Assembly: GCA_047632435.1 (NCBI GenBank)
Contig: JBLICU010000005.1
Coordinates: forward strand, 15-64,014
Reading direction: 5' to 3'
DNA from: Cyclobacteriaceae bacterium
Lineage (GTDB): Bacteria > Bacteroidota > Bacteroidia > Cytophagales > Cyclobacteriaceae
Length of the DNA stretch: 64,000 nt
The notes below the pieces were generated by a model that was given only the letters and a program-made list of their open reading frames with translations, searched no databases and was not told the DNA's origin. Below are positions 10,993 through 53,492 of this stretch, piece after piece; position 1 is the stretch's first letter, and each line of letters opens with the position of its first letter. The position numbers and the translations under genes are program-made.

Positions 10993-11765
10993 TGGAAAAC
11001 AAGGAAACAATCAACGAAGGATGTGAGACATGCGCTTTTCACAATGTGGCCCAACTTAAAAAACTTGGTATAAATGTCGATAACGCCGATTATGTAATTG
11101 CATTGGCTGGAAACCCAAACACAGGCAAAAGCACTGTTTTTAATGCGTTAACAGGCCTAAGACAACATACAGGAAACTGGTCTGGCAAAACGGTGACCCG
11201 TGCAGAAGGCGGATTCCTTTATAGTGATAAACGTTACAAGCTAATTGATTTACCAGGTACCTATTCTTTGTTATCAACCTCAGAAGACGAAGAGGTTGCA
11301 AGAAATTTTATCCTGTTTGGAAGACCAGATGTGACAGTCATTGTTGTGGATGCGTCCAGATTGGAGCGTAATCTTAATCTCGTGCTTCAAGTATTGGAAA
11401 TCACCAACAAGGCGGTGCTGTGTTTGAATCTGATGGATGAAGCAAAGCGTCATGGCATTGCCATCGATGAGCGCACCCTAGCTAAGGATCTGGGTATTCC
11501 TGTGGTAGCTACCAGTGCCCGAACAAATGAAGGAATCCCCGAATTGATAAAAGTGATATCTCAAGTCGCTTCAAATGAAATAGCCTGCAAGCCTCATAAA
11601 ATCAAAAACCTAGCTCCAAAAGTGAATGAGGCTATTGAAGAATTAAGTGATAAAATATTGAGGCTTTATCCCAGCCTACCAAATAGCAGATGGGTTGCTA
11701 TGCGATTACTGGATGGCGATCAGGAAGTATTGAATGCGCTAAATGATGGAGAATTGACAGTTTAA
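10989..11765 (+). CDS. feoB: FeoB N-terminal GTPase domain (split FeoB)
   Basis: G1 [17 protein letters not shown]3 DLPGTYSL and G4 NLMD. N-terminal CETC motif. Confidence 0.9.
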
Positions 11766-11770
11766 TTGAT

Positions 11771-13198
11771 ATGGTAGACAATAAAAAAAGTTTAGACGAG
11801 ATCACCGCTTTTACATCTTCACTCAGATGGAAAGTAGGTGACGATTTTCATGATAAGCTTACCGAGGCGATCTATTCAGATGCTTCGGCGATTACTTTGA
11901 GGGCAGAGATTAAAAATACAGAAAAAGAGACCTATCATTTTGATCGGATGCTTGATCGGATCCTGACAAGCAAAAAATTTGGATTCCCAATCATGGCATT
12001 GATATTATCAACCATTTTGTGGATCACCATACAAGGCGCAAATTATCCTTCCGGACTACTAAATGATCTTTTATTGGGAATCGTCTACCCATTTCTTAAG
12101 TCCATCGCAAGTAGCATTGGAATGGTATGGTGGCTAGATGGATTTATCATTGATGGCGTTTATATGGCGGTTGCTTGGGTGATTGCGGTGATGTTACCTC
12201 CCATGGCAATATTTTTTCCCTTGTTCACGCTGCTAGAAGATTTTGGGTATCTGCCACGCGTAGCTTTTAATCTCGATGGATTATTCAAAAGAGCTGGCGC
12301 TCATGGCAAACAGGCTTTAACCATGAGCATGGGCTGGGGATGCAATGCCGCCGGAGTGGTGGCAACTCGAATCATTGATAGCCCCCGGGAGCGATTGATT
12401 GCTATTATTACCAATAATTTTTCGCTTTGTAATGGTCGTTGGCCAACTCAGATTTTGATTGCTACCATTTTTATTGGGGCATTGGTTCCAGCTGGTTTAT
12501 CCAATCTAATCAGCACTGTGGCAGTGATATCAATTGCCTTTTTAGGAATATTTTTCACGTTTTTTACTTCATGGCTCCTATCCAAAACCATGCTTAAAGG
12601 TGAAGTATCAACCTTTACATTGGAGCTTCCACCCTATCGACCACCAAGATTTTGGCAGACGGTTTATACTTCACTTATTGATCGCACATTAATTGTGCTT
12701 TGGAGGGCTGTTGTATTTGCTGCTCCGGCTGGAGCTGTAATCTGGCTCATTTCAAACATAGACATTGGAAGTCTTTCTATAGCCTCACACACCATTGATT
12801 TTCTCGATGAGTTTGGTATTCTCATCGGATTGAATGGAGTTATATTATTGGCTTATATTGTAGCGATACCGGCAAACGAAATTGTGATTCCCACAGTATT
12901 GATGCTTACCGTTGCTCAATTTAATATTGCTGGATTTGGCTCAGGGGACGGTGTTATGTTTGAATTAGATTCTACTGCTGACACATCTGATATTTTAAAA
13001 GCCGGCGGCTGGACAATCCTAACCGGGATTAATTTGATGCTTTTCAGCTTACTACACAACCCATGCAGTACCACTATTTACACCATCTATCAAGAGACAA
13101 AAAGCTGGAAATGGACAAGCGTGGCAACTATTCTTCCTATCATTATGGGATTTGTGGTTTGTTTCCTCGTTGCGCAGTTTTGGCGATTATTAGCTTAA
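11771..13198 (+). CDS. feoB: FeoB membrane domain (split FeoB, Gate domains)
   Basis: [35 protein letters not shown] and HNPCSTT motifs. Confidence 0.9.
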
Positions 13199-13685: not shown

Positions 13686-15512
13686 TCAAGGCCTTACTTT
13701 TTCATTCTCAGCTGGTTTATTGGTTTCGGAATAAAACTTCTGAAGTATGTAAAAAGCTTCCTTTTTCTGACCTGTATCCGATATTAGTCCTTTTCGGTTA
13801 AAGTCATTTTGGATATGCCTCAGGTTTCTTCTAGGGGATAGGAAGTCTTTTAAGATCCAAGGCGATACACCAGCAAGAAAATCTACCTTTTTCATCATTT
13901 CTATATTACAGCGGTATACTTCACTTTGATACTCCTCGGTCCAGCGCTCGTTCACGTCACCATGCAGACCCTGCAATGCTCCTGCCCCAAGTTCACTAAA
14001 AATCACAGGCTTATCAGATGGATTAGCCCAGGTTATATCAACACATTCCTGAGGTTTTTTGGAGTACCATCCACAATATGTATTAATTCCAATCACATCT
14101 ATGTAATTACCCAATGGATCATCTATAACTATCTCATTGTCTTTGCCTCGTTGTGTGTTTAATGCAGCTGTGATCAAACGTGTCGGATCTATCTTTCTGG
14201 CAGTATCGATAAGCGATTTAAGAAACGCTAAACGCTCCGCAGTGATAGGTGTCTCATTGGCCACTGACCATAACCCAATTGCAACTCTGTTCTTATCCCG
14301 ATTGATCATATCTGTGAGTTGCTTCTCTGCATTTTTATAAGTTTCGGGATTATCATAGTCAATAGTCCAGTAAACGGGAATCTCAGACCAGATCAAAAAA
14401 CCCATTTCCTCAGCAAGTTTCACCATAAACTCACTGTGAGGATAGTGTGCCAATCTCACATAATTACAACCCAATTCTTTCGCCCATCCTAATAGTATTT
14501 TGGCTTGATCAACAGAGACCACCCGCCCTGCTCCAAATGGAGCTTCTTCATGGATGCTAATTCCCTTTAAGAAAAGGTACTCTCCATTTAGTAAAATCTT
14601 TGACCCATCGGTGCTTATGGTCTTGAATCCTATTTGGTCTTCAATAATATCCTCTCCGAATTGGATACTTATTTCATAACGAATAGGATCAGATGGTGAC
14701 CATTTCTGAAGCTTTGGTACCAAAAATGAAAACGAAGCTTTACCTTCATTATTCGTTTTTACAGAAATACTTTTTCCAAGTTTGGGAATGCTAACAGTGA
14801 CTTGCTGCTTCCCCCTCTTAGCCCCGTCTAACGATACCCAGCCAACAACTTTATTGGCATTTTCTTGATCAAGCGAGAATGAGTAATCATTGATAAAAGT
14901 TTCAGACAATTCAATCAAAGACACGGTCCGTGTGATCCCGCCATAATTCCACCAATCAAAATTCACAGTTGGCACTCCATCTCGCAAACGTTTGTTATCG
15001 ACTTTGAGGATCAAAAAATTTTCATCCTGCAGCTGATCTGTCACATCAAAACCAAAAGAAGTATACCCTCCTACATGGTCGCCCAAATAAGTACCATTGA
15101 GATAGACTTTGCATTGATAGTTTACACCTTCAAAATTGAGGGCAGTTCGCACTCCAGTCTTTCGTTTGTATGAAAAAGAACGCTTATACCATACAGTGCC
15201 TTCATAATAGTAGAGTTTTTCCATCTGAGTATTCCAATCTCCCGGCACTTCCAGCTGGTAACTCTGATCAAAATCATATTCAATCAGGTCATCTGGCTGA
15301 TTCATTTTCTCATTTTTGAAGTAGCCATTTTTCCGCTCCTCTAAGCTATGATTGTATAATCCGTTTTCAAGCGGATCAATGATGATTTGCCAAAGTCCGT
15401 TCAAACTGACCTTATTTCTAGCGTCAACATTCTGGAGTGAGTACTCTTTAGACTGAGAGTGGCAGATAAAAGCCACTAACAAGAAGGCTGCTACAAATAC
15501 AGAATTTCTCAT
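13686..15512 (-). CDS. GH2 beta-glucuronidase, secreted
   Basis: Signal peptide, RLAHYPH, acid/base WSVANET, nucleophile SELGAG and the NxKG (FNRKG) motif that distinguishes beta-glucuronidases from beta-galactosidases. Confidence 0.88.
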   Translation of the reverse strand: MRNSVFVAAFLLVAFICHSQSKEYSLQNVDARNKVSLNGLWQIIIDPLENGLYNHSLEERKNGYFKNEKMNQPDDLIEYDFDQSYQLEVPGDWNTQMEKLYYYEGTVWYKRSFSYKRKTGVRTALNFEGVNYQCKVYLNGTYLGDHVGGYTSFGFDVTDQLQDENFLILKVDNKRLRDGVPTVNFDWWNYGGITRTVSLIELSETFINDYSFSLDQENANKVVGWVSLDGAKRGKQQVTVSIPKLGKSISVKTNNEGKASFSFLVPKLQKWSPSDPIRYEISIQFGEDIIEDQIGFKTISTDGSKILLNGEYLFLKGISIHEEAPFGAGRVVSVDQAKILLGWAKELGCNYVRLAHYPHSEFMVKLAEEMGFLIWSEIPVYWTIDYDNPETYKNAEKQLTDMINRDKNRVAIGLWSVANETPITAERLAFLKSLIDTARKIDPTRLITAALNTQRGKDNEIVIDDPLGNYIDVIGINTYCGWYSKKPQECVDITWANPSDKPVIFSELGAGALQGLHGDVNERWTEEYQSEVYRCNIEMMKKVDFLAGVSPWILKDFLSPRRNLRHIQNDFNRKGLISDTGQKKEAFYILQKFYSETNKPAENEKVRP

Positions 15513-15514
15513 GT

Positions 15515-17410
15515 TTATCGTTTTATAAATTTTGCTGAGAACTGGGTATCATTGGCATCAATCCCTTCCATGAGATAAACACCGTCCCCCAAATTCGACA
15601 GATCAATGGCTTCATTATTTTCTAATCGTAATTGTTTCACCAAAATGCCTTCTAACGTCCAAATTTTGATCGATCGAATCTGTAGATCAGTTCTTAACCA
15701 CATTTGATTATTGGTCACTGGGTTTGGGTATAATAATGCACCGGCAGAAAAATCAGTATTTAATACCTCATCTGATTCAATTAATTCATTTGATGCCTGA
15801 TGGATACCTATGTCAATAGAAATATTGCCAGCTATTGAATTACCGAAAAAATCAAATTTGGGTATACTTTCAAGCCTCAACCCTGATGCTCTTGCGGGTG
15901 AACTCTGGAGGAGCTGATAGCTGTTTTCACCCATGCCGATAGCGTTCAATTGTGGATCTTCAGTTACGGCATTTGTATCTTGAGGGGTCTTATAAGTGGT
16001 TTTTCCGAAATAAAGATTATGACTAAAGACATTCCTCAAACTAGGACCTAAATCATATTCACAACTGGCTCCCTCCACATAGAATATATTGTTATGAAAG
16101 AATGTGTCCTCAGGCTTGGCGCCACTCCAGCTTTTTGAGTAAATAACATGGGTAAAGTCTTGACCTTCTGGTATATAAACCAAATTGTTGTGGAAATAGG
16201 TATTGGTAGCAGATCCTGAAAAACGAACGGAAAACTTTCCATCAGAGCCTTTCCTAGCCATGTGGCCATCTCCTTCGATTATGTTGTATCTTATGATGGT
16301 GCGATCATTAAATCGACCTGGACCTCCCGTCACCAACAAACCAAAATCATTGTCATGAAGGTAATTATATTGGATAGTCGTGTTTTTAGAGCGATAATCA
16401 CTATCCACACCCCCAGCATCTTCATCATCCAAATTGGCCTTTGTTCGTTCAAATTCATTGAATTGCCAAAGCGTGTTGTCAGTATTGAAGTTAAATGCCG
16501 CATTGCCTGATCCTTTAATAGAACAGTCTGAAAATAAACATTGCTCTATAACCGCACCATCAGACACCCGCACGATCAAAGCGTTTACACCCGTTCTTAC
16601 AAACGTACAATTCCTAATCACATAGCTTTTGTTTGGCTTCCAATTTGAGTTTGAATTGAACTCACGGTTATCATAGTAAGACCAGTTGGAGATGCCTGTA
16701 CGATCAACATCATGGATATGGCAGTTTTCAATCAATAGGTCTTCAAAGTGACTAGAGGTAATTCCCTGAAAGATTTCCATGAAAATACCGCCATTGTCTT
16801 TTGTCCTTATATCTCCATTTATTCCATGAATCTCCAGGTTTCGAAAGGTCAGACCCTTAATTGCACCAGCGCTTTTCCCTTCCACAAGAACGCCACTCTT
16901 TTTTGAATTGCTACCAGCATATTGATGTGGTTCAACCATATCAACATAATCTGTAATGTTGCGCTGCTCCCACTCAGATAAAGTAAGGTTTGCCTCCTCG
17001 GAAGCTTCATAATTGGTAATTTCTAAATCTTCTATTACCCAATATTGCTGATTGTAGAGAAAAATGGTGCAGTAATGGCTCTCGCCAGCTTCATTTGTAC
17101 AATTAGTAAGCCCAGCTCCATTAATCACCGGATTGGATCCATCCCCATATCTTCCGATCACAATGGGCTTACCCTCAGCCCCAGAACCCTGGGGCTGAAG
17201 GGTACCCACCCATAGCTGGTCAGCTCTCATTAATATACTATCACCAGGATAAAATATGGTCGTATTAATATTGGCTAGTAACCTCCAGGCTGTTTCAGTA
17301 GAAGTACCTTCACCTGTGTCACTCCCACTTACCTGATTAATGTAGTAGTTAGTGCCATAGACATTCTGTATTAACAGAATAAGAATACTTACCATCAAAC
17401 ATAATTTCAT
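15515..17410 (-). CDS. Right-handed beta-helix carbohydrate enzyme with T9SS CTD (paralogue 1)
   Basis: YYINQVSGSDTGEG...PGDSILMR...GSGAEGKPIVIGRYG, DAGGVDSD and CTD LYPNPV...LGDGVYLM. ATG at 17410 preferred. Confidence 0.85.
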   Translation of the reverse strand: MKLCLMVSILILLIQNVYGTNYYINQVSGSDTGEGTSTETAWRLLANINTTIFYPGDSILMRADQLWVGTLQPQGSGAEGKPIVIGRYGDGSNPVINGAGLTNCTNEAGESHYCTIFLYNQQYWVIEDLEITNYEASEEANLTLSEWEQRNITDYVDMVEPHQYAGSNSKKSGVLVEGKSAGAIKGLTFRNLEIHGINGDIRTKDNGGIFMEIFQGITSSHFEDLLIENCHIHDVDRTGISNWSYYDNREFNSNSNWKPNKSYVIRNCTFVRTGVNALIVRVSDGAVIEQCLFSDCSIKGSGNAAFNFNTDNTLWQFNEFERTKANLDDEDAGGVDSDYRSKNTTIQYNYLHDNDFGLLVTGGPGRFNDRTIIRYNIIEGDGHMARKGSDGKFSVRFSGSATNTYFHNNLVYIPEGQDFTHVIYSKSWSGAKPEDTFFHNNIFYVEGASCEYDLGPSLRNVFSHNLYFGKTTYKTPQDTNAVTEDPQLNAIGMGENSYQLLQSSPARASGLRLESIPKFDFFGNSIAGNISIDIGIHQASNELIESDEVLNTDFSAGALLYPNPVTNNQMWLRTDLQIRSIKIWTLEGILVKQLRLENNEAIDLSNLGDGVYLMEGIDANDTQFSAKFIKR

Positions 17411-17475
17411 CCTCCCCTCTTGCCAATTAGCCATATGAGTTTTAATTTTTATCTATTTATCCTTGTCTATTCTCT

Positions 17476-20394
17476 TTAATATTTGATGATTCTTTCAGTA
17501 TATCGGTGACCAAAAACGTCGGTAAACCGAATCATATAGATACCTCGCTCGATTCCGCTCAGGTCAATCCGATCGCCTACAAGCTCACTTTGAGTAAGCA
17601 CCTTCACTTCTCTACCTTTAAGATCATATATACTCACAGCGTTAATGGGTGATTCACTTTGAAAGTTGAGATCTGTAGATGTAGGATTAGGGTATGTTTT
17701 GAATGTAGAAATCACTTTTTTAACTTCCGGTCCGGAGATCGCCATCCTTGCTCCAGAATTCAAAGTAATTTCCAGATAAGGTCTAAAGCCTGTGTTGGTA
17801 TTTTCAGAACTATAAAGCTGCGCCAATGCCCCGCTTTCCGCATCGTCACTCAACTTAATAGAGATTACACCATCTATTCCCAACTGCGTGTTAACAGCAG
17901 AGCCTATATCCAGTGTGTACCAGCTATTACTTGTGCCAACGCTTAGATCTCCGAGTGAATACGAGACTCCAGGTGCTGAATTATACGTGACAGTGGACTC
18001 ACTCCAGCTATCGGTGGCAGCTTTATATACATCTATGTTCATACTATAATCAGCATTTCCATAAATATTAAAAACAGCTGAAGCAACGCTACTGACTCCA
18101 AGTGAATTCATGTCAAATTTCAAAAAAGCCTCCCTCCTAAAGTTGACATTGGTAGTCCCTTTCACAGCCAATGTCTGTTCAGAACCATAGTTTGTGCTCG
18201 CGTAAGTTCCTGCACGGACGTAAGCATCATCACCAGGTGAAACAGCCGTAATTGTCGTACCCGCAACCACCAGGTAGGCCTTATATTGACTTTGCGTATT
18301 TTCTTTGCTGTAGAGATCTATGGTTTTGACGAGTCCCGCATCGTCCATCAGTCCAATCGAAAAGGTGCCGTTCCCGGTCATTTCATCCTGCGCAGCACTT
18401 GTCACATCCAGCTGTATCCAGCCATCGGACGTACCTACCGATGCGGCTGATATTAGCGAAGTAAATGAAGGGGCATTGCTCCAGTTGACAGTGGATTCAG
18501 TCCAGGTATCAGAAGATGCTTTGTAAGCATTGATATTCATATTTAGCTCCGCATTTCCGTACACAAACAAATGCGCTGAAGTAATTGCGCTATAGCTTGT
18601 CAGGTCAAACTTCAGGAGTGTCCTCCGAGTGAAACTGGCATTGCTACTTTCCTTCACCGTTAATAATTGTTCACTCCCATAATTTGTGCTGCTGTATGAT
18701 CCGCCTCTGATATGTGCATCTTCATTTACGTAAAGCGTGTCGCCCCCAGTACTGGCTGTACTCACTTGGTGCACACCTCTGTCAACAGGAGCCAGTGTAG
18801 CAATCTCGTTTTGATAATAATCTTCATCCGGGATAGATGCTATCCGAATGCCACTACCCAATGCTGGAGAACCTGACCCTAATTCATAGCCACTATCCCC
18901 TCCACCAGGATTGGACAGCAATGGATCTAAAGTGAGACCATTATTGTCCGTTGGCACATTTGACGCTGTATTGCCATAGAAGGTATTGTAAGCAAACAGA
19001 TTATCCGTGCTACTGGTGAACTCATAGGTACTATTTGATCCCAGGTTATAAAAAATATTATTGTAATAGGACGTATTATCTGGATAGCTACCGCTCCAAC
19101 CTTTGTGAAAAACAATCTTGGTAGAATCCTGGGAGCTACTTAAATAGATCACATTGTTGTGAAAGGTTGTATTAGTGGCCGCCCCAGAAGATCTTAAAAC
19201 AAACCACTTATCGTCCCCGTACCTTTTTACTTGTCCATCACGCTCGAAAATATTATACCTGACTATGGTTCCATCATTAAAATCCCCAGGACCTCCTGTT
19301 ACAAGCATCCCAAAATCATTATCGTGAAGATAGTTGTATTGGATAATAGTCCCTTTGGTGCGATAGTCACTATCTACTCCACCTGCATCATGATCTCCTA
19401 CATTCGCTTTTGTATATTCAAATTCATTGTATTGCCAGATGGTATTATCCGTATTAAAATTAAACGCAGCATTTCCAGACTCTTTTATTGAACAATGGTC
19501 AAAATGACAATTTTCAATCACTGCATTATCAGCTACTCTAACTATCAAGGCATTTGCTCCAGTGCGCTCAAAACTAGTGTTTCGTATCACCAAATTAGTT
19601 GTTGGTGTCCAATCGGTGTTGGTTGACAAAGTCCTATTATCATAATCTGATTCATTGGAAATACCCGTGCGATCTACATCATGGATGTAGCAATCTTCAA
19701 TCAGAATGTCATCGAAGTACGTTGGGGTTTCGGAACCAAAATTGAATATGCGAAAGAAAATTCCGCCGTTGTGTTTTTGCGAAATCTGGCCATTTACACC
19801 ATGTACTTCCAAATTAATAAAATGCAATTGACTCAATTCCCCTACATCATTGGCCTGAACCAGTACACCACATTTCTTCGTATTCGTGCCCGTGTACTTA
19901 CCCGGATTCGTGACATTCGCATAATCCGTTTCATTGTCACTTTCCCACTCACTTAGCGTAATGCTTGACTCTTCACTTGAGTCATAATTGGTAATTTCAA
20001 GATCTCGGATAACCCAATATTCCTGATTGTAGAGAAGTATGGTGCAATACTTTGTCTGACCAGGCTCCACGGTACAATTCGAGGATCCATCCCCATTGAG
20101 TGCTGGTCTACTGCCACTGCCGTACATTCCTATTACAATAGGGTTACCTGATGAACCAGAACCTTGTGGTTTTATCGTTCCGGTCCATGATTGACCCGCT
20201 TTAAAAAGGATACTATCTCCCGGCTGAAAAGTAGTCGTGTTAATATTTGCAAGTGTTTCCCATGCTGCCATCTGCGAAGTTCCACTATTGCCATCATCTC
20301 CTGAGACAGAGTCAATGTAGTAGTTGGTCGCAAGACAAGGCCATGCTGCACTGAGCATTATAATGGCCAATAAGCGTTGAGCGTGTTTCATCAT
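17476..20394 (-). CDS. Right-handed beta-helix enzyme + two DNRLRE (CBM96-like) modules + T9SS CTD (paralogue 2)
   Basis: Same catalytic-domain motifs as paralogue 1. Two modules of form DA[HY][IV]R.G.Y...NYGSE...R...LKFD at ~18270-18745 and ~17760-18250. CTD TYPNPT...RGIYMI. Confidence 0.85.
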   Translation of the reverse strand: MMKHAQRLLAIIMLSAAWPCLATNYYIDSVSGDDGNSGTSQMAAWETLANINTTTFQPGDSILFKAGQSWTGTIKPQGSGSSGNPIVIGMYGSGSRPALNGDGSSNCTVEPGQTKYCTILLYNQEYWVIRDLEITNYDSSEESSITLSEWESDNETDYANVTNPGKYTGTNTKKCGVLVQANDVGELSQLHFINLEVHGVNGQISQKHNGGIFFRIFNFGSETPTYFDDILIEDCYIHDVDRTGISNESDYDNRTLSTNTDWTPTTNLVIRNTSFERTGANALIVRVADNAVIENCHFDHCSIKESGNAAFNFNTDNTIWQYNEFEYTKANVGDHDAGGVDSDYRTKGTIIQYNYLHDNDFGMLVTGGPGDFNDGTIVRYNIFERDGQVKRYGDDKWFVLRSSGAATNTTFHNNVIYLSSSQDSTKIVFHKGWSGSYPDNTSYYNNIFYNLGSNSTYEFTSSTDNLFAYNTFYGNTASNVPTDNNGLTLDPLLSNPGGGDSGYELGSGSPALGSGIRIASIPDEDYYQNEIATLAPVDRGVHQVSTASTGGDTLYVNEDAHIRGGSYSSTNYGSEQLLTVKESSNASFTRRTLLKFDLTSYSAITSAHLFVYGNAELNMNINAYKASSDTWTESTVNWSNAPSFTSLISAASVGTSDGWIQLDVTSAAQDEMTGNGTFSIGLMDDAGLVKTIDLYSKENTQSQYKAYLVVAGTTITAVSPGDDAYVRAGTYASTNYGSEQTLAVKGTTNVNFRREAFLKFDMNSLGVSSVASAVFNIYGNADYSMNIDVYKAATDSWSESTVTYNSAPGVSYSLGDLSVGTSNSWYTLDIGSAVNTQLGIDGVISIKLSDDAESGALAQLYSSENTNTGFRPYLEITLNSGARMAISGPEVKKVISTFKTYPNPTSTDLNFQSESPINAVSIYDLKGREVKVLTQSELVGDRIDLSGIERGIYMIRFTDVFGHRYTERIIKY

Positions 20395-20443
20395 TTTAGG
20401 GTTTTTGGGTTAGTTAAATTTTAACGCCGAATCTGATTCTCCC

Positions 20444-22522
20444 TTAAGGCTTCATGATTCTGGTTGCGTAAACATGCTGGTCAATATCCAATGCATGAAT
20501 GATATATATCCCGGGATTCAAGAAGCTTAAATCCATTGATAACTGATTTGAATGAATATCTTTTAATTGGTAAACTATCGCACCTTTCATATCCACCACC
20601 TTAATTCCCACAAAGGCTTTGCCCGATTGAAGTTTGAGTGCTCCATTTATTACAGGGTTTGGGTAAATCCGTAATTCATCCATGGGCAAATCAAAATCTG
20701 CTTCCAGATTCTTAAATACTGCACCAGTACGCGATCCACTGGAAAGCTGATCTGTGACGTAATCCACCAATATATATGGCCTTACATGCTGATACGTCTG
20801 ATTCTCCTTACTGGTTACCTTGAGTTGTGACGTGGTTACAGCATTGTCCTTCAGACCTATGGAAACAATCGAATCACTCTCATATTCCTGATTCACAAGG
20901 CTTGTAGCAAAAACAGTGTAGCTCTTGTAGGAACTACCTTCCACAGGTAGTGTATAGAATTTATTGCTCATGGCCGGGCGATTATTCCAAGATAAACTTC
21001 CTTCTGCCCAGTCATCCGCGGCTCCATAGAAACCCACCTCAAAACTTTCATTGTCATTCACATAACCATTGATTTTCAGACTCGCGTCAACGATATAACC
21101 GTTAATCCCTTGTAGGTTGAATTTTAAATAGGTTCTTCGGGTGTAACCAGAAGTAGTGATTTCCTTGACCCGCAAAAGATCTTCTGTACCGAAGTTGGTA
21201 TCTCCAAAACTCCCATCCTGAACATGTGCATCCTCGGTAACCCAAATCGTGTCCTGCATGTACTGATAGCCATACTGCATTTCCAATACTTTGCTGGCAT
21301 ATCTTCTTCCCAGGATCCGCTGGCTTTCAGAATCAAAATGCGTACTATCAAAAGCCATTAAACCGAAGGACTCCACAATATCAGTGTTGGCAACAGAATC
21401 AGGTAACGTCCTAATTAACTTATTAAAATTGGAATTTTCAGGTCTTAGCTGACTGATTTGCCCTGCAATAAACGATAGGTTTGGCATGTCCAGTGTATCT
21501 CTAAAATCAGTGATTAAAGACTTCAACTTGGATAAGTAAGTCAGGGTATCATTCTTATTACTTTCTCCTTGGTGCCAAAGAATTCCTTTGAGTTGCGTAT
21601 TGGGAAGGGCTAGCGCTGCGCTGATACGGACATAAGCAGAATCAAAATAGCCCGCATTTGCACCTTTGAGCCATTCATTGATATTGGAACCCCCTCTCGC
21701 ATTCACAACCAGGCCTATGTCCTTGCCTGTCACCCTGTGCACCATTTCACCAAAAGTATAGGCATAACCCAATTTCTGGTGAACTAAATCTTTGCGTATT
21801 GTTGAATAAGCGTTCAATGGATTTTTAGCCGGAATCCAACTGTTTACATCATTCAAGAGATAAACATCGTTTAAAGAGACTGTATCCTGTGCTTCAATTT
21901 CGGCTCTTCCGGCTGTATTCGATTGACCAATGATAAAATAGACATCCTTTGTTGCCGACTCACCTTCCACCACCAAACGCGCTTTGTATTGACTTGAGCT
22001 ATTCTCTTTGCTATACAAAAAAACAGTTTTGACTAGCGAAAAATCATCCTTCAGCCCGACGGAGAACGACTTATTTCCCCCGTTCATTTCATCCTGTGCA
22101 GCCGATGTAACATCGAATTCAACCCATTGATCAGTTGTAGTAACTATTGCAGAATCTATGAAGGCATTGAAAGATGAAGCGTTGTTCCAGGTAAGGGTAG
22201 ACTCAGACCAAGTATCAGGATATACCTTGTATGCACTTACGGTCATCTCTTGTTGGGCACTCCCATAGACCAATAACTTTGCTGAGGAAATAGCCCTATA
22301 AGCTCCCAAATCAAATTGCAAATAAGTCCTACGGGTGTAGGAAGCATTATTACTTTCCTTGATCTCCATCTTAATTGCGTCTCCATGGTTGTCATTGCTA
22401 TAGGAACCTCCACGGATATGCGCGTCCTGATCAATATAAAGCGTATCAGTGACCATACTGAAAACTATATTTGCAATAAAAGCAAAAACACTAAAAAGCA
22501 ATATTCTAAATAGTAGATTCAC
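20444..22522 (-). CDS. DNRLRE - SASA/CE6-like acetylesterase - DNRLRE - T9SS CTD
   Basis: SGNH-type GQSN (catalytic Ser), WHQGESN and DSTH (DxxH), flanked by two DNRLRE modules. CTD IYPNPV...PGIYII. GTG start. Confidence 0.85.
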   Translation of the reverse strand: MNLLFRILLFSVFAFIANIVFSMVTDTLYIDQDAHIRGGSYSNDNHGDAIKMEIKESNNASYTRRTYLQFDLGAYRAISSAKLLVYGSAQQEMTVSAYKVYPDTWSESTLTWNNASSFNAFIDSAIVTTTDQWVEFDVTSAAQDEMNGGNKSFSVGLKDDFSLVKTVFLYSKENSSSQYKARLVVEGESATKDVYFIIGQSNTAGRAEIEAQDTVSLNDVYLLNDVNSWIPAKNPLNAYSTIRKDLVHQKLGYAYTFGEMVHRVTGKDIGLVVNARGGSNINEWLKGANAGYFDSAYVRISAALALPNTQLKGILWHQGESNKNDTLTYLSKLKSLITDFRDTLDMPNLSFIAGQISQLRPENSNFNKLIRTLPDSVANTDIVESFGLMAFDSTHFDSESQRILGRRYASKVLEMQYGYQYMQDTIWVTEDAHVQDGSFGDTNFGTEDLLRVKEITTSGYTRRTYLKFNLQGINGYIVDASLKINGYVNDNESFEVGFYGAADDWAEGSLSWNNRPAMSNKFYTLPVEGSSYKSYTVFATSLVNQEYESDSIVSIGLKDNAVTTSQLKVTSKENQTYQHVRPYILVDYVTDQLSSGSRTGAVFKNLEADFDLPMDELRIYPNPVINGALKLQSGKAFVGIKVVDMKGAIVYQLKDIHSNQLSMDLSFLNPGIYIIHALDIDQHVYATRIMKP

Positions 22523-22538
22523 ATTGTTCGTTTAATGG

Positions 22539-24185
22539 TTAGAAATTAATTCCAATATTGAGGCTGTCCGCATGAATGCGCTTACCCTCGTAATCTTTGG
22601 TTGGCATCTTAATCAATTCAATCCCTGTATTTCGTAAAAGGGAATTTTCAGATGGCACATAGCCATCATTATCTGATTTGAATAGTTCACGCACATCAAC
22701 AATATTAGCATCTCTCGATGGCCATGACCGTACCGGCTTGTTCGCAATCACATTGTTTTCAAAGTGGTTTTCAGTACTTTCAGTCATCTGGAGATAGGTA
22801 CCCACCCCATCATTAATAATAACGTTATTATAATAGGTGGACTTAGATGGATAGCCGCCCCAGTTTTTATGATAAACTGCTGCGCGACCTTTCTGCTTCG
22901 AGCCAATTTTAAAAATATTATTATGAACCCATGTGTTCGTTGCATTTCCAGAAATCTTAAATGAGTAGTCCAATCTACCATCTGAAGTATCTCTTGTGAT
23001 GCCATCATTTTCAAAAATATTGAATCTGACAATTGTTCCTTCATTGAACCCTCCAAAGCTCCTTTGACCGCCTGTAACGAGTGGCCCAAAATCATTGTCA
23101 TGAATATAATTGTATTGCATGATGGTCCACTTCGTCCGAAAATCACTGTCAATACCACCGGCATCATGGTCACCAATGTTGTATTTTGTAAATCGACCTT
23201 CATTATATTGAAGCAAAGCACTATCAGTGTTAAATACAAAAAAAGCATTGCCACTCTCCTTTATGGCACAGTGATCGAAAAGGTTATTTTCAATTATTGG
23301 TTTGTCAGCCACACGGAGTATCAGTGCATTCGCACCTGTTCGTTCAAACCGGCAATTTCTAACTATATAACCCAGCGATGGAGTCCAATTATCAATAGAA
23401 TCAAGCGTGCGATTTTCATAGTAAGATGAATTTGAAATTCCAGTTCTGTCAACATCATGTATGTAACAGCTGTCAAATACCAATCCATCAAAATAGGTTG
23501 GTTTTTCAGATTCCGAACCTAGAATTTCAAGAAAAATACCCCCATTATTTTTGGTTCGAATGTCCCCATTTATTCCGTGAATATATAGGTTATTATAAGT
23601 TAGGTTGTGAATAGCACCATAGTTTCTGGCTTGTACGAGAATTGCGCTTTTTCTTTTTCTGGGTTGTTGATACTGTTTTGGGTGATAATAATTAGCAAAG
23701 CTGTCAATATTATGTTGCTCCCATTTCGTGAGCGTGATTCCTTCCTCTTGCTGATCATAGTTGGTGATTTCAAGATCTCTTATTGCCCAATATTCCTGGT
23801 TGTAAAGGAATAGCGTACAGAAATGCTCATCTTCAGCTTCCGGAGTACAGTTGTAAGCGCCTTGCCCCTGTATTTTAGGGGCTTTCCCTTCGCCATATTT
23901 ACCCATTGTTATAGGTTTATTTGGAGCGCCTGATCCTTTTGGCAACAATGTCCCTGACCATTCACAACCAGCCTTGAAGAGCAGCTTATCACCAGGCTCG
24001 AAAGTAACCTGATTTACCCGCTCAAGTGATTGCCATGCTTCGGCAGCACTCGTGCCTTCATTAAGATCTGAACCTGATTCACAGTCAACATAATAGCTAA
24101 TGACTGTCACTTCCTGACAGGAAAATAGACATATCACGGCAGCTACTAAATAGCATAATCGAACATATAAAAAAGAACCAGTCAT
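22539..24185 (-). CDS. Lipoprotein right-handed beta-helix enzyme (paralogue 3)
   Basis: LFSC lipobox, YYVDCESGSD...PGDKLLFK and DAGGIDSD. No CTD. Confidence 0.85.
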   Translation of the reverse strand: MTGSFLYVRLCYLVAAVICLFSCQEVTVISYYVDCESGSDLNEGTSAAEAWQSLERVNQVTFEPGDKLLFKAGCEWSGTLLPKGSGAPNKPITMGKYGEGKAPKIQGQGAYNCTPEAEDEHFCTLFLYNQEYWAIRDLEITNYDQQEEGITLTKWEQHNIDSFANYYHPKQYQQPRKRKSAILVQARNYGAIHNLTYNNLYIHGINGDIRTKNNGGIFLEILGSESEKPTYFDGLVFDSCYIHDVDRTGISNSSYYENRTLDSIDNWTPSLGYIVRNCRFERTGANALILRVADKPIIENNLFDHCAIKESGNAFFVFNTDSALLQYNEGRFTKYNIGDHDAGGIDSDFRTKWTIMQYNYIHDNDFGPLVTGGQRSFGGFNEGTIVRFNIFENDGITRDTSDGRLDYSFKISGNATNTWVHNNIFKIGSKQKGRAAVYHKNWGGYPSKSTYYNNVIINDGVGTYLQMTESTENHFENNVIANKPVRSWPSRDANIVDVRELFKSDNDGYVPSENSLLRNTGIELIKMPTKDYEGKRIHADSLNIGINF

Positions 24186-24266: not shown

Positions 24267-25280
24267 TTAACGCGCAGCAATACTTACTTCATCCACAGCT
24301 ATACCTCTAGAATAAGTCCCCTCAGGAAGGTCTGCTTCTATTTTGAATTTCAAATTTCCATCTATATCAGCAGTTCCATTGATTGTATACATCGTATAAA
24401 TACCACTATCACCGGTTCCATCAGTGAATGCATTATCCATTGTGTCTCCACCGGTAAAACTCGCATCCAATCCTCTTTCTGAGCTACCATGGAGTCTCAG
24501 CCAATACGTAACAGTGGCTGGCTGACCTGCTTCCAATCCACTTACAGCAATTTCAACTGAAGTACCCGGGCCTTGCACAGAAAATGCATTTCCACAATTT
24601 CCATCTGTATCGTCATTATTATCAGCATCTGCTACACCGTCTGAGGCTGTGTCTGTGCACATTGCTCTTTGAGATTGTACCCTTGCACCAATGTCTGTAT
24701 TAGTGTCATCTCCATCATTATAATGCGTAATGGCATAAGCCACAGTCAATCCTTCCATGACAGTACCGGCAGACTCTAAATCTTCTACGAACAGCTCGCT
24801 TCCATGTCCACCATCACCTGACGTACTGGATTTGCCCATTTCAAAGCCACTGGAATATATTACAGTACCTGCATCAAGGAAAGTAATAGGCACTGCAGTA
24901 ACATTGGCGGTAACATCAATGATTTCAGTCAAATCGCCAGATGATACGGTGATTTCTCCAGTAACTGCACCAAGAGTTGCTTCCAGACTTGGCGCAAAAG
25001 TAAGAGTAACCGTGTTCAAGGCATTCGCAATAGGAAATACCGTTTGACTTAAACTGAAACCTTTTCCCGTTACGGATAGCGTTACAGTTCCAGTTATATT
25101 CTCACCCGTCACAGTAAACTCTTTCGTAGCAGTAACCCCAGCTTGTACATCTCCAAAAGCTAAGGATGAAGCGCTTAAGGTTACTACGGGATCTGGAGCG
25201 GGCTCATCTTCGCTGCATGAGATAAATCCTATGCAAGAAATAAAAAGGATAATGAGTAAATAGTTTTTAGAAGATTTCAT
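24267..25280 (-). CDS. Surface lipoprotein, candidate glycan-binding protein (SGBP)
   Basis: FISC lipobox followed by acidic residues, an Ig-like beta domain and a C-terminal beta-sandwich with a Cys-flanked Asp-rich loop. Lies directly downstream of susD. Confidence 0.7.
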   Translation of the reverse strand: MKSSKNYLLIILFISCIGFISCSEDEPAPDPVVTLSASSLAFGDVQAGVTATKEFTVTGENITGTVTLSVTGKGFSLSQTVFPIANALNTVTLTFAPSLEATLGAVTGEITVSSGDLTEIIDVTANVTAVPITFLDAGTVIYSSGFEMGKSSTSGDGGHGSELFVEDLESAGTVMEGLTVAYAITHYNDGDDTNTDIGARVQSQRAMCTDTASDGVADADNNDDTDGNCGNAFSVQGPGTSVEIAVSGLEAGQPATVTYWLRLHGSSERGLDASFTGGDTMDNAFTDGTGDSGIYTMYTINGTADIDGNLKFKIEADLPEGTYSRGIAVDEVSIAAR

Positions 25281-25359: not shown

Positions 25360-27024
25360 TTAATAACTAGGGTTATTACTTATTTTGAAATCAAGATTTG
25401 CATCAATAAAAGATTGCGGAATCGGAAATAGCTTATCTCTTTCTATCATTTTTCCAGATGCATTTACATTGTACAGATTGGTTCTTTCAATCCATTTATT
25501 ATTTCTGAGTAGCGTGTATCTCCTATGCTCTTCCGAAAAAAGCTCCCGAGCTCGCTCATCTAAAATAAGATCAATGTCAATTTCTGCCGGAGTTACTTGA
25601 GTTGCATTGGCACGATTTCTTAATTCATTGATATAGAATGCAGCATTGTTAGGGTCACTATTTTTGAAATACGCCTCTGCCAATAAGAGATAAGTATCAG
25701 CAAGCCTTAGATAAATCTGATCATTAAAAGCTCTGCTTTCGCTTGGATCAACCACATGTGACCAATCCCACTTACGAGTGTAGGGTCTAATTCTATCTCC
25801 AAGAGGATCCTCCGGGGTGAAGTCCAGCCATAATGTATCACCGACACTTCCAGCTGTGGATGGATCTTCTTCGCTCACTACAAAATAAGTCCGCCAGCTA
25901 AACTCATCGCCCCTATCATCTATCACCACCCCATTGTTATCCCGATAAAGATCAAACACAAACTTGGTGGCTGAAAGACGAGTATTTCCTCTACCACCTC
26001 GATCTATGGTGACAGCCAACCCAGGAGCTCCGCCACTAGAACTGCTATACTCACTCATGAACCATCGTCTCATGATATTGTGCCCTTGTCCTCCTTCCAC
26101 TTCATATTCATTTTGTAGCACCCACAAGGCTTCTGTATTACCCTCACTCGGATTGGAATTGCCGCTCAGAAACATATCACTATAAGGAGTTCCTGGAAAC
26201 GAAGAATTTACACCATATCTATTAGTTACAAGTGAGCGAGAACCTCCTATGGCTTCAAGTGCTAATGAAATAGCCGCAGAATACTCCTCCTCGATTATCA
26301 ACAATTCAGTTAAATAGTGCTGAGCCACAGCTTTGATAATCTTACCATCATTTAAATGAACTTCTGGTAAGTGCATGACCGCAAATTCTAAATCCTCTTT
26401 TATAAATTCTCGAATATCAGCAACAGATGTTCGTTCCCAGTCAAGACGAACATTTTCACCCGTAGATTCCTCCTTGACCAAAGGCACATCACCATATAGA
26501 AAGGTAAGATGACGGTACGCCCACGCTCTCATGGTTTTGGCTTCACCTGAAATTCTATTCAAAGTACTTTCATCAATACCTCCTCCTCCAAATTGATCTG
26601 CTCTATTGATTATGGTGTTGGAAGCATTGATAATTTCATATAACCAATTCCATGTCCCACTGAAGTATCCTTGAGCAGCATTTCCCAATACTTGCTCTCC
26701 CCAATCATTGAGGAAAAGTTCAGCATTCCATGGTCGGTTGCCGTAGATGATGTCCGTTCCAGCCATCATCATTGCACATGTCAGGTTATTACTATTGCCA
26801 GTAGGGTTACTATTACTTGGTAGTCCGGCTCGTTCAACACGTGCCAGCGCATAGAGGCCATTTAGTCCTGCATCAAACCCCACCTCATCTACATAGAGAT
26901 TATCAGGTGCTATGACATGAGGGATTTCTTGATCTAAGAATTGGTCTTGACATGACACACTAACCAAGATGGTAACTGCCAAAATGAATGTTTTGATTAT
27001 GTAATGTTGGGGTTGCTTTTTCAT
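25360..27024 (-). CDS. susD: SusD/RagB-family glycan-binding lipoprotein
   Basis: SVSC lipobox, GEAKTMRAWAY..L...YGDVP, YLRLADTYLLLAEA and DERARELFSEEHR...L.R. Confidence 0.93.
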   Translation of the reverse strand: MKKQPQHYIIKTFILAVTILVSVSCQDQFLDQEIPHVIAPDNLYVDEVGFDAGLNGLYALARVERAGLPSNSNPTGNSNNLTCAMMMAGTDIIYGNRPWNAELFLNDWGEQVLGNAAQGYFSGTWNWLYEIINASNTIINRADQFGGGGIDESTLNRISGEAKTMRAWAYRHLTFLYGDVPLVKEESTGENVRLDWERTSVADIREFIKEDLEFAVMHLPEVHLNDGKIIKAVAQHYLTELLIIEEEYSAAISLALEAIGGSRSLVTNRYGVNSSFPGTPYSDMFLSGNSNPSEGNTEALWVLQNEYEVEGGQGHNIMRRWFMSEYSSSSGGAPGLAVTIDRGGRGNTRLSATKFVFDLYRDNNGVVIDDRGDEFSWRTYFVVSEEDPSTAGSVGDTLWLDFTPEDPLGDRIRPYTRKWDWSHVVDPSESRAFNDQIYLRLADTYLLLAEAYFKNSDPNNAAFYINELRNRANATQVTPAEIDIDLILDERARELFSEEHRRYTLLRNNKWIERTNLYNVNASGKMIERDKLFPIPQSFIDANLDFKISNNPSY

Positions 27025-29969
27025 TATAGGCTGAAGTTTAATCCGAAAACAATTTCCTTTTGCAATGGCACTGATCGTTGGCTACTTAACTCTGGATCTA
27101 GTCCTGTCCAATCTGTTATTGTGATTAGATTTCTTAATGTCGTATAAACTCGTAATCCAGAAATACCTGTCTTACCAAGCAAGGAATCATTAAAAGTGTA
27201 GGATAATGTAATGTCCTTGACTCTCATAAAATCTGCACTTTGATAGAATCCGACATTATAGATATTAGCTTGGGGATGATTTCTGTGAAAGGTTTTAATA
27301 GGATCTTCTTGAGTCCAATAGTCTAATACAAACCAGTTTCGCTTTACACCACCATAGACGTTTTCATCGTAAATGGTATTTCTCTTGGTTACTCCTTCTA
27401 CACCATGTATGAAAACATACAATGAAAAGCCTTTATACTTTAACGTATTAGTAAGTCCCCAGGTAGTTTTTGGGTCTCGCTGACCTTGAATAGCTCGGTC
27501 ATGTTCTGAAGATATTCCAAGGACTGGATTACCATCTGTATCAATTGGGTTGTCAATATCTTTTACTTTCACATCACCTGGATGAGCATTAGGTTGAGCA
27601 CTCTCTGTTGCATCTTCACCCTCTTGCCAGATTCCATCAAACACCAAACTATAATTTGATCTTATAGGCTTTCCAATGAATAATCCATTTCCGATATCGT
27701 CTTGATTTTTCCCGAATAGGGAAACAATCTCATTACGGTTGAAGGACATATTTCCTGCAATATTCCAGGTGAAATCCTTTTTATTTATCGCAAATCCTGA
27801 GGTAGATAGCTCAATACCTTCATTCTGAACTTTACCAATATTCTGAGTGATCTCTGTAATCCCATGGACGGAAGGGATGAGTCTATCCAGCAGCAAATCT
27901 GATGTGCTGGCTCTATAAATATCTGCTGAAAACTGAACACGATCAGAGATGAGTCCTAGATCTAAACCAAAATTGAGGGTTGCCGTTTTCTCCCAACTCA
28001 ATTCATTATTAGCTAATTGATTTGGTACAAACCCCGGTGCAGTTTGACTTCCATTTAAATAAGAGCGATCGCTCAAGCGGGCTAAATTATCATAAGGTCC
28101 CACTGCCTGATTGCCATTCTCTCCGTAAGAGATTCTGAATTTAGCTTTGCTCACGAAACTAGTAGGGAAAAAAGCTTCATCTCCTATATTCCAACCTACT
28201 GCTACTGACGGGAAAATTCCGTACTTGTTTTCATCTCCGAAACCTGAAAACCCATCTCGTCTTACAGTCATGGTTACCATGTATTTATCAGCATAGCCAT
28301 AATTGACCCTAGCCATTTGAGATAGAAGTGTTGTTTGGGTGAAACTGCTTGATGGACTTATTCCTACTGCTAGATGATTTTGATAGTAGGTAAGTAAGTC
28401 ACTTGGGAAACCTACTGCATCTACTCCGTTATCTTCTGATTTGATCTTTTGAGCACTGTAAAGCCCCGTGAATCCGATAGAGTGCTTCCCAAATGTAGCA
28501 GAGTAGTTTAAGATATTTTCTAGCAAAAAGTTTTCATCTGATTGATTGCTCACCTGTGCATCCCCTCCTGATGTAAAACCTCTAGCTGTATTCCTTCCCC
28601 AGTAGGTACCAATCTTTCTTGCACCCACTTCTATACCAGTATTAATCTTGTAGGACAACCCTTCAAGAAAAGGAAATGAATACATTAGGTAATTGGTTGT
28701 GAAAATTTTATTATTTATATCGTCATTCACCGCTAGCGTGGGTGCCAACGCGTTTTCGAAAAACTGATCCTCTGGCCAAGGGAAGATGGTAGGGCTACCA
28801 TCACTATCATATGCTGAACTCAGAGGATTGAGAAAATAAGCTCCAGCAGCTTCTCCCCCAAAGTCTGGATCTAAACCAGACCTATCAATTCTGGAAAGCT
28901 GAGTAGAAGTACCGAATTTCAGATCCTTGGTAATATCAAAACTGAGATTAACTCTCAACGATACTCGATTAAAGTTATCATTAATAGCTACACCCTGAGC
29001 ATCCAGATAACCCATGGACACATAATATTTGGCATTATCAGTCGCACCAGAAACTGACAAATTATGCTCTTGCTTAACTCCTGTCTGTGTAGCGAGAGAA
29101 AGCCAATCAGTGCCTTTACCTTGGGCAAGTAGATCAAGCTCTGATGGAGTGAGCTCACCTGGCTCCCTTGTTTCTTTGAATGCGGCAAAGCCAGGTCCAT
29201 CATATACGGCTGGAACATTGCCAATATCGGAGATACCAATATATCCACTATAGGTGATTTTAGGCTGACCTTTTGTGCCTTCTTTTGTTTGAATTAAAAT
29301 CACACCATTAGCTCCTCTCGATCCATAAATTGCTGTTGCAGATGCGTCTTTCAAGACAGTCATATTTTTAATATCTGACGTATTGATATCAGAAATACTA
29401 CCCGCATAAGGCACGCCATCAAGAACGATTAGAGGGGAGTTGGAAGCATTGATTGAGTTCCTACCTCTAATCAAAATGCTTACATCATTTTGCTCGGCAC
29501 TAGAGGAATTAAGTGTTATGTTAACTCCAGGCAAAGCACCTTGAAGCGCTTGGCTAAAATTGGTGTTTGGCTTGGCATCTATTCTATTCACATCAATCGA
29601 TGCTACCGAACCTGTTAAATCACTTTTCTTTTGAGACCCATATCCTACAACAACAATTTCTTCAAGTGCGTGAATGTCATCTGGAAGCACAAAATTGATT
29701 AAGGATCTTCCACCCACCTTTGCTGTTTTACTTTCAAAACCTACAAAGGAGGCTATAAGGTTTGCTTCGGGATTCACCATAATTTGGTAATTTCCATTCA
29801 CATCTGTTACAGTTCCATTATTTGCACCAACTTCTTGAATGGTGGCCCCAGGTAATGGCTCACCGTTTGAATCTTTAACAACTCCTGTCAATTGAATTGA
29901 AGAATTCTGTGCATTTAGGTTTGTCAATATGACGAATAAAAAAATAATTTGCGTAAGGTATCTCCTCAT
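27024..29969 (-). CDS. susC: SusC/RagA TonB-dependent transporter
   Basis: CarboxypepD-like N-terminus, EEIVVVGYG, LKDASATAIYGSRGANGVILI, WEKT and C-terminal GLNFSL. Confidence 0.96.
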   Translation of the reverse strand: MRRYLTQIIFLFVILTNLNAQNSSIQLTGVVKDSNGEPLPGATIQEVGANNGTVTDVNGNYQIMVNPEANLIASFVGFESKTAKVGGRSLINFVLPDDIHALEEIVVVGYGSQKKSDLTGSVASIDVNRIDAKPNTNFSQALQGALPGVNITLNSSSAEQNDVSILIRGRNSINASNSPLIVLDGVPYAGSISDINTSDIKNMTVLKDASATAIYGSRGANGVILIQTKEGTKGQPKITYSGYIGISDIGNVPAVYDGPGFAAFKETREPGELTPSELDLLAQGKGTDWLSLATQTGVKQEHNLSVSGATDNAKYYVSMGYLDAQGVAINDNFNRVSLRVNLSFDITKDLKFGTSTQLSRIDRSGLDPDFGGEAAGAYFLNPLSSAYDSDGSPTIFPWPEDQFFENALAPTLAVNDDINNKIFTTNYLMYSFPFLEGLSYKINTGIEVGARKIGTYWGRNTARGFTSGGDAQVSNQSDENFLLENILNYSATFGKHSIGFTGLYSAQKIKSEDNGVDAVGFPSDLLTYYQNHLAVGISPSSSFTQTTLLSQMARVNYGYADKYMVTMTVRRDGFSGFGDENKYGIFPSVAVGWNIGDEAFFPTSFVSKAKFRISYGENGNQAVGPYDNLARLSDRSYLNGSQTAPGFVPNQLANNELSWEKTATLNFGLDLGLISDRVQFSADIYRASTSDLLLDRLIPSVHGITEITQNIGKVQNEGIELSTSGFAINKKDFTWNIAGNMSFNRNEIVSLFGKNQDDIGNGLFIGKPIRSNYSLVFDGIWQEGEDATESAQPNAHPGDVKVKDIDNPIDTDGNPVLGISSEHDRAIQGQRDPKTTWGLTNTLKYKGFSLYVFIHGVEGVTKRNTIYDENVYGGVKRNWFVLDYWTQEDPIKTFHRNHPQANIYNVGFYQSADFMRVKDITLSYTFNDSLLGKTGISGLRVYTTLRNLITITDWTGLDPELSSQRSVPLQKEIVFGLNFSL

Positions 29970-53481: not shown

Positions 53482-53492
53482 TGCTCTATAAT

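Follow-up and report, generated by a model that had tools for sequence, protein, structure and literature searches.

The 64,000-nucleotide window analyzed here, from contig JBLICU010000005.1 of a Cyclobacteriaceae bacterium, carries three paralogous minus-strand genes whose products resemble the enzymes of glycoside hydrolase family 136 (GH136). The genes, designated paralogues A, B, and C, belong to an operon of the polysaccharide utilization locus (PUL) type, and their products combine a β-helix with different targeting elements: a lipoprotein signal, or a tail for the type IX secretion system (T9SS) with or without carbohydrate-binding modules of family CBM96.

22539-24185, minus strand: GH136-like paralogue A, 548 amino acids (aa), a lipoprotein consisting of the catalytic β-helix alone; predicted acid/base D341 and nucleophile D348 within 23142-23165.
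17476-20394, minus strand: GH136-like paralogue B, 972 aa, with a β-helix (~18715-20328), two CBM96 modules (~17764-18729), and a T9SS tail (~17479-17694); predicted catalytic motif at 19366-19389 (D336/D343).
15515-17434, minus strand: GH136-like paralogue C, 639 aa, with a β-helix (~15770-17353) and a T9SS tail (~15518-15733) and without a CBM; predicted catalytic motif at 16397-16420 (D339/D346).

A preliminary description of this DNA, made from its letters, had proposed three paralogous β-helix enzymes with shared motifs and three different destinations, and closer analysis bore it out. The three open reading frames (ORFs) encode proteins with pairwise identities of 48-52% across ~525 aa, far above chance, and a genome search found no fourth copy, leaving A, B, and C as the whole set. 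The motifs HDVDRTGISN, RTG.NAL..RV.D, and QYNY.HDNDFG are all invariant in the three-way alignment, and the 24-nucleotide stretches carrying the proposed Asp motif translate as DAGGVDSD in B and C and DAGGIDSD in A. With respect to targeting, the sequence of paralogue A contains an LFSC lipobox (Cys23), and the Cys is kept in its six closest orthologues. In paralogue C, the sole added module is a Por_Secre_tail domain (PF18962; E 8e-8), in agreement with a match to PDB entry 8glj. Paralogue B contains two DNRLRE modules, detected as CBM96/DNRLRE (PF24517) at E 1.3e-70 (236.9 bits over two stretches), followed by a Por_Secre_tail domain at E 1.4e-9. The T9SS type A sorting domain (PF18962/TIGR04183) scores above the cut-offs in B, C, and an esterase encoded between A and B, and CBM96 (PF24517/NF033679) scores above its cut-off in B and the same esterase. 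Two ORFs overlapping gene A (22784-23254, minus strand; 23064-23429, plus strand) were taken as spurious.

Assignment of the trio to GH136 is supported by sequence searches, profile comparison, and structural modeling. When single proteins were compared to PDB chains with phmmer, the only matches were GH136 lacto-N-biosidases (7v6m, E 2e-21 to 6e-23; 6kqs, 3e-20; 5gqc, 7e-15). A family profile built from 36 relatives matched all five GH136 PDB sequences across the whole catalytic domain (E 2.8e-66 to 4e-48), with values of 2.8e-66 for TnX (7v6m), 4.6e-52 for BsaX (7v6i), 4.9e-52 for LnbX (5gqc), and 4.2e-48 for ErLnb136 (6kqs). These matches span profile positions 21-536; in LnbX, profile positions 21-535 correspond to chain positions 10-596. 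The next profile match outside GH136 was to a Paenibacillus alginate lyase (6kfn, 6e-5), which we take to be a PL31 enzyme, and involved only the N-terminal cap; a match to polysaccharide lyase family PL6 (3.6e-4) was also confined to the cap (profile positions 53-147). The AlphaFold2 model of paralogue A residues 24-548 had a predicted local distance difference test score (pLDDT) of 91.6 and a predicted template-modeling score (pTM) of 0.91. In Foldseek searches of the PDB, its top six matches were all GH136 structures (E 4.5e-22 to 1.1e-19; query template-modeling score, TMq, 0.61-0.76), followed by GH120 XylC (1.4e-8) and then PL6 lyases (~1e-7; TMq 0.38-0.53). These next-best matches, whose PL6 members include chondroitinase B and alginate lyases, have the general fold in common with the window proteins; their catalytic machineries are different, that of PL6 being based on Ca2+ with Lys or Arg. 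Neither the profile nor Foldseek found family-level similarity to PL6-type enzymes over the catalytic coils. The best match of the model is thus GH136 and not a Ca2+-dependent lyase, and the full-domain profile matches are set against lyase matches of 6e-5 and weaker.

The same family link, which the preliminary description had advanced from the spacing of the outer Asps of DAGGxDSD, seven residues apart as in D411/D418 of LnbX, extends to individual residues, as the two pairs align column for column. Hidden Markov model alignments place the outer Asps at chain positions 382/389 of LnbX and 570/577 of ErLnb136. The latter chain numbering is offset by 2 from D568 and D575, the acid/base and nucleophile, respectively, of ErLnb136 (PMC7335108). 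For LnbX, an offset of 29 would identify the aligned pair as D411/D418, and this offset is supported by PDB entry 24mr, an LnbX variant with an Asp-to-Ser change precisely at the last Asp. Conservation was assessed in an alignment of 212 rows, comprising 208 family members and four solved GH136 enzymes. Across the 208 family rows, D341 (paralogue A numbering) is conserved in 99% and D348 in 100%, and the set formed by D341, D346, D348, N328-E329, Q357-Y-N-Y-x-H-x-N364, and R387-Y-N389 is 92-100% conserved. This core is the same in the lacto-N-biosidases (LnbX/LnbY of Bifidobacterium longum, 5gqc; BsaX, 7v6i; TnX, 7v6m; ErLnb136, 6kqs), except that H362 is Tyr in LnbX and BsaX. The window proteins and these enzymes have in common the right-handed β-helix, the Asp-x6-Asp pair, the YNE, DxD, QYNYxHxN, and RYN motifs, and the position of the aromatic platform under the −2 galactose, which is W548 in ErLnb136 and a conserved Phe in the window clade. 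In a retaining double displacement, the most likely mechanism, the acid/base would be the leading Asp of DAGGxDSD and the nucleophile its final Asp; the predicted place of the pair in the groove rests on alignment to ligand-bound GH136 structures.

The remaining genes of the locus are as follows.

30310-34389, plus strand: hybrid two-component system (HTCS) sensor/regulator, divergent from the operon, with Reg_prop, Y_Y_Y, HisKA, HATPase_c, Response_reg, and HTH_18 domains.
27024-29969, minus strand: SusC-like TonB-dependent transporter (Pfam CarboxypepD_reg and Plug).
25360-27024, minus strand: SusD-like glycan-binding lipoprotein (Pfam SusD_RagB, E 2.9e-29).
24267-25280, minus strand: Ig-like lipoprotein, 337 aa, probably a surface glycan-binding protein.
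20444-22522, minus strand: O-acetylesterase of the SASA/CE6-like type, 692 aa, arranged by Pfam as CBM96, esterase, CBM96, and T9SS tail.
13686-15512, minus strand: GH2 of the β-glucuronidase/β-galacturonidase type, preceded by a signal peptide and containing an NxK motif (N572-R-K574).

The operon runs in the order SusC, SusD, Ig-like lipoprotein, A, esterase, B, C, and GH2, with all genes co-oriented and separated by 2-81 bp. The locus therefore has the features by which a PUL is recognized: adjacent SusC and SusD, co-oriented carbohydrate-active enzymes (CAZymes), and a regulator. The 337-aa lipoprotein has an FISC lipobox followed by an acidic SEDE stretch, a choice-of-anchor D signal below the NCBIfam cut-off (7e-07), and weak filamin-Ig matches in the PDB; homologues occur in orthologous loci L005 and L007. 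Pfam domains in the esterase are CBM96 (2.6e-57; 193.7 bits over two stretches), SASA (3.3e-48), and Por_Secre_tail (3.6e-9), and the nearest solved esterase is the acetylxylan-esterase-related 1zmb (2e-12). The founding CBM96 member is described as binding alginate (PMC9971899). The best PDB matches of the GH2 protein are 6d1n, a β-galactosidase/β-glucuronidase (6e-202), 7vqm, a β-galacturonidase (1.4e-178), and 6ncy, a β-glucuronidase (1.6e-126); its best NCBIfam match, the E. coli UidA-type β-glucuronidase model PRK10150 (1.2e-70), falls below the cut-off (238 bits vs. 544). The protein keeps the NxK carboxylate-binding motif of the Bacteroides uniformis-type GH2 β-glucuronidase (6d1n) and of AqGalA (7vqm) and, by these comparisons, is a β-hexuronidase of the glucuronic acid (GlcA) or galacturonic acid (GalA) type. 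GH88 and GH105 are absent from the window PUL, and the one clear GH88/GH105-type gene of the genome is located on another contig. The genome has two uxaC genes, and no sugar-acid catabolic genes were found elsewhere among the scanned window ORFs.

The flanks of the PUL are unrelated to it: Feo iron transport genes border one end, and VWA/TPR proteins and a thiolase are encoded beyond the opposite end. FeoB is split (10989-13198, plus strand) between two ORFs in different frames and 5 nucleotides apart, with the G-domain in 10989-11765 and the membrane Gate/FeoB_C domains in 11771-13198, a layout that stems either from a frameshift or from a natural split. Farther along the window (51976-55149, minus strand), an ABC_tran ATPase and a protein of the ABC_transp_aux/DUF7088 type are similar to a gliding-motility transporter set like GldA/GldG, which would fit a T9SS-bearing Bacteroidota host.

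The arrangement seen in the window recurs in other Bacteroidota. Operons with the order SusC, SusD, Ig lipoproteins (in some cases), one to three GH136-like genes, and GH2 (~600 aa) are found in Roseivirgaceae, Flammeovirgaceae, and Fulvivirgaceae. In the Roseivirgaceae example, SusC and SusD are followed by a 2241-aa fusion protein, an Ig-like protein, an A-type protein, a C-type protein, and GH2. The fusion protein (L087:2126-8851; metagenome-assembled genome [MAG] contig CAYGTD010000024.1) unites the equivalents of paralogue B and the esterase in one chain, in the order GH136-like β-helix, CBM96, fn3, CBM96, SASA, CBM96, and T9SS tail. A minimal locus in Fulvivirgaceae contains the HTCS, SusC, SusD, and a single gene each for a GH136-like protein and a GH2, implying a substrate that the GH136-like and GH2 activities could dismantle together. 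Pedobacter heparinus has GH2, GH50-like, SusC, SusD, a GH136-like gene, and a GH136-like–SASA fusion. Four or more lineages have such β-helix–SASA fusions, with lengths of 781 aa in Pedobacter, 918 aa in Hymenobacter, 789 aa in Verrucomicrobiota, and 2241 aa in Roseivirgaceae, and this argues for a common acetylated substrate of the two domains.

Neighboring genes were tallied in 35 related loci, mostly from Bacteroidota with a few from Verrucomicrobiota, Ignavibacteriota, and Neomarinimicrobiota. GH2 is a neighbor in 21 of the 35, with the NxKG motif kept in most; sulfatases occur in 15, GH88 in 9, GH50-like proteins in 8, and GH39 in 7. SASA is a neighbor in 15 of the 86 loci collected in all. 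The window PUL has no sulfatases, in contrast to the 15 of 35 related loci that do. The GH50-like neighbors are ~480-490 aa in length and lack a Pfam match (L026:5595-7070; L086:1870-3318; L090:320-1762), and their PDB matches are 5t3b (5e-73) and β-agarases (~1e-29). In Algibacter miyuki, four GH136-like genes are found within 37 kb (G041:C31:488000-525000), in three adjacent PUL-like units that also contain sulfatase, GH50-like, GH2, SASA, and GH88 genes. A recurrent 178-aa ORF cluster in the related loci was discarded as an antisense artifact lying inside the β-helix genes.

The FastTree phylogeny assigns each of A, B, and C to a different subclade. The subclade of A consists of proteins of ~550 aa without a tail, and the lipobox Cys is present in seven of its ten members, which are the seven nearest A (with A included). 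Members of the C subclade are ~640 aa in length and have a T9SS tail. Paralogue B pairs with one fragment only, and a separate subclade of ~815-aa proteins carries CBM96 and a T9SS tail. The existence of three subclades, two of them with conserved architecture, indicates that duplication and division by location are older than the split of several Bacteroidota families. A, B, and C are therefore old paralogues with their own conserved targeting, products of an old subfunctionalization. The gene itself is rare among close relatives of the host, being found in none of six same-genus genomes and in one of 34 other relatives (as a weak match), and this rarity identifies the PUL as an accessory locus in the host genome. 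More broadly, there are at least 514 loci in species-representative genomes, from Bacteroidota, Verrucomicrobiota, Acidobacteriota, Planctomycetota, Armatimonadota, Ignavibacteriota, and Paenibacillus, and the 80 loci examined are of marine, sediment, freshwater, or soil origin. Among 1.84 billion cluster representatives (50% identity), the family profile matched 26,520 at E ≤ 1e-3, 14,839 at E ≤ 1e-10, and 2,539 at E ≤ 1e-30.

Collectively, these observations favor, with a probability of about 0.65, a reading in which the trio are divergent GH136 retaining hydrolases, encoded in an HTCS-SusCD operon for an acetylated glycan containing hexuronate. We infer the hydrolytic chemistry, the endo-action, the order of steps, and the substrate class. 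In the proposed pathway, the T9SS would export three proteins, the esterase, B, and C, with B held on the polymer via its two CBM96 modules. The CE6-like esterase would strip O-acetyl groups and expose the backbone, and the GH136-like enzymes would then depolymerize the glycan by retaining hydrolysis of a β-glycosidic bond, with the two Asps of D-(x6)-D serving as the acid/base and the nucleophile, respectively. Paralogue A would act at the outer membrane as a lipoprotein. Whether it is exposed at the surface is uncertain, since it has C-QEV after the lipobox compared to the acidic, export-type C-SEDE signal of the 337-aa neighbor. SusCD would take up the oligosaccharides, the periplasmic GUS (β-glucuronidase)-type GH2 would trim β-linked hexuronate from non-reducing ends, and the freed hexuronate would enter the uronate pathway represented by the two uxaC genes. 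Enzymes of the GUS-type GH2 class need saturated glucuronides, whereas lyases leave unsaturated ends, which are the substrates of GH88. The presence of a GUS-type GH2 in a PUL devoid of GH88 and GH105 thus argues for a hydrolase rather than a lyase. Our best guess for the substrate is an acetylated β-GlcA or β-GalA polymer, either a GlcA-X disaccharide repeat or a β-1,4-glucuronan. By analogy with the release of lacto-N-biose (LNB), a GlcA-β-X-β repeat would be cut to "biuronic" units.

Several points weigh against this reading. Structural matches place the identity to characterized GH136 enzymes at 20-23%, and the substrate class is drawn solely from the neighboring genes. Characterized GH136 enzymes need an LnbY/GH136-I partner (PMC7335108, PMC8106489), and no such partner is fused or adjacent in the window, nor does the operon contain an unassigned helical ORF; the β-helix begins within ~6 residues of the signal peptide, which leaves no room for a fused helper domain. 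The 337-aa lipoprotein was considered as an LnbY-like helper and ruled out, as it has only Ig/filamin-like and choice-of-anchor-D signals. In a sister subclade from Algibacter and Pseudalgibacter, ~50% identical to the window proteins, the locus carries an unsaturated glucuronyl hydrolase of family GH88 (match to 3wiw at 1.4e-105) but, as judged by Pfam in the 57-kb region of A. miyuki, lacks a recognizable lyase, a combination that hints at β-elimination.

These last findings bear on the proposal that the trio are polysaccharide lyases, in which a GH136-derived β-helix has turned to β-elimination on 4-linked uronates, with the Asp cluster holding a cation and R259 acting in catalysis. True GH88 enzymes occur in the nine related loci noted above, and the β-helix protein is the sole visible depolymerase in the Pseudalgibacter and Algibacter PULs. 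R259 and the basic residues of DSD[YF]RxK are specific to the clade, and the fold is common to PL6, PL9, and PL1. The acid/base and nucleophile Asps and the GH136 core are nevertheless 99-100% conserved in all subclades, including the one linked to GH88, and the likeness to PL6 described above is weak, involving the N-terminal cap in the profile and a TMq of ≤0.53 in Foldseek. Furthermore, the window PUL and the closest orthologous PULs have GUS-type GH2 and no GH88. Alternatively, the lyases of the Algibacter region could be two large proteins without annotation. These conserved proteins (~721 and 753-762 aa; L017:4594-6756 and L017:6831-9089 in A. miyuki) have no Pfam match and are also present in L020, L025, and L029, which are Flavobacteriaceae loci with sulfatases, SASA, GH136-like genes, and a 900-aa GH2; they are candidate CAZymes and possibly the missing lyases. 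On balance, a lyase is an improbable identity for the window proteins, though one with some claim to attention.

It is far less probable that the trio are true lacto-N-biosidases, or near equivalents, which release Gal-β1,3-HexNAc from host- or mucin-type glycans. The characterized relatives found among PDB entries and in the literature consulted are all lacto-N-biosidases of gut bacteria, LnbX is the only functional NCBIfam model matched, and the catalytic core and aromatic platform are conserved. However, the LnbX equivalog (NF047897; EC 3.2.1.140) is matched by the window proteins at 58 and 45.5 bits, in the N-terminal part only, against a cut-off of 2500. In the FastTree phylogeny of 212 domains, the four characterized enzymes occupy their own branch (100% support) opposite the 208 relatives. 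By this evidence, the window proteins are relatives of LnbX, not equivalents, and the suggestion in the preliminary description of a candidate new subfamily or activity is a fair one, in that the proteins form a separate, uncharacterized clade. The lacto-N-biosidases also contain insertions without a counterpart in the window proteins, located after paralogue A residues 114 (11-13 aa), 269 (15-18 aa), 307 (11-27 aa), and 504 (25-27 aa). Those after 114 and 307 are the Loop 1 and Loop 2 regions of ErLnb136, which wall the LNB pocket. Loop 1/Loop 2 length sets the openness of the active site in ErLnb136 (PMC7335108), and the active site of LnbX is a pocket, compared to the cleft found in β-helix enzymes that act on polymers (PMC8106489). 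The missing pocket loops suggest that the window proteins have a more open groove and act in endo fashion, which fits their secretion and CBMs. Conversely, the window family has insertions of its own with near-invariant R259 and W267/P269; R259 is 98% conserved and is absent from the lacto-N-biosidases. Together with the basic residues that directly follow the nucleophile in the three-way alignment (DSD[YF]RxK), these are possible contacts for an anionic substrate, judging from the alignments. The modules differ as well: LnbX has Gram-positive surface anchoring, in contrast to the CBM96 and T9SS tail or lipoprotein signal of the window proteins. Whereas lacto-N-biosidases belong to an LNB/human milk oligosaccharide pathway, the window locus, a PUL of the SusCD type, encodes an acetylesterase along with a β-glucuronidase-type GH2 and no GH112, GH42, GH20, fucosidase, or sialidase. 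The closest relatives are from marine and soil bacteria, no helper is fused or adjacent, and the substrate is probably not lacto-N-tetraose.

A non-catalytic role, as β-helix surface or secreted binding proteins (adhesins) that keep ancestral residues, is hardly credible; although β-helix proteins are often adhesins and the T9SS is the predicted export route of B and C, the catalytic residues are strictly kept over 208 diverse sequences, exo-glycosidases and esterases are encoded in the PULs that contain these genes, and the β-helix is fused to an esterase in several lineages, with separate CBM96 modules to serve binding.

Within the preferred reading of the trio as GH136 hydrolases, a bolder version is put forward tentatively. 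The proteins may be helper-independent, endo-acting GH136 hydrolases of an acetylated polyuronate or GlcA-X polymer and may represent the environmental stock of the gut lacto-N-biosidases, whose origin has been called "enigmatic" (PMC8106489). This version is doubtful as it stands. A hydrolytic β-1,4-glucuronan depolymerase may be one example of such an enzyme; the glucuronan- and cellouronate-degrading enzymes named in the literature found are lyases.

GH136 proteins have been reported from environmental bacteria before. A PUL of Winogradskyella forsetii with GH136 and sulfatases was called "enigmatic" (PMC9723794), and by its description it is like the window PUL in being environmental and in having GH136 within a PUL, but it differs in its sulfatases. 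GH136 has been annotated in marine Bacteroidetes, including one protein with a T9SS tail (PMC10792170), and in Hebobacteria (PMC10290634), a group with MAGs in which relatives of the window proteins were found (L035, E 2e-67; L062, E 7e-62). Functions assigned to environmental GH136 include one that "degrades xyloglucan" (PMC10290634) and a mucin-related role (PMC13502194). The xyloglucan and mucin functions are unfounded, having been transferred without evidence, and the clade has been misread. Annotation pipelines probably assign the clade to GH136 already, so the family link itself is unlikely to be new (PMC9723794, PMC10290634). What is new is the confirmation at the level of residues and structure, the apparently helper-less architecture, the conserved three-location set of paralogues, and the tie to a GUS-type GH2 and an acetylesterase. 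The clade is an uncharacterized variant of a known family, large and environmental, and does not amount to a new kind of system.

The window brings together the three paralogues, an esterase, and a GUS-type GH2, a compact and clean test system for this clade. Assignment of an activity would re-annotate thousands of genes, would show which acetylated acidic glycan such PULs harvest, and would bear on the evolution of milk-oligosaccharide enzymes.

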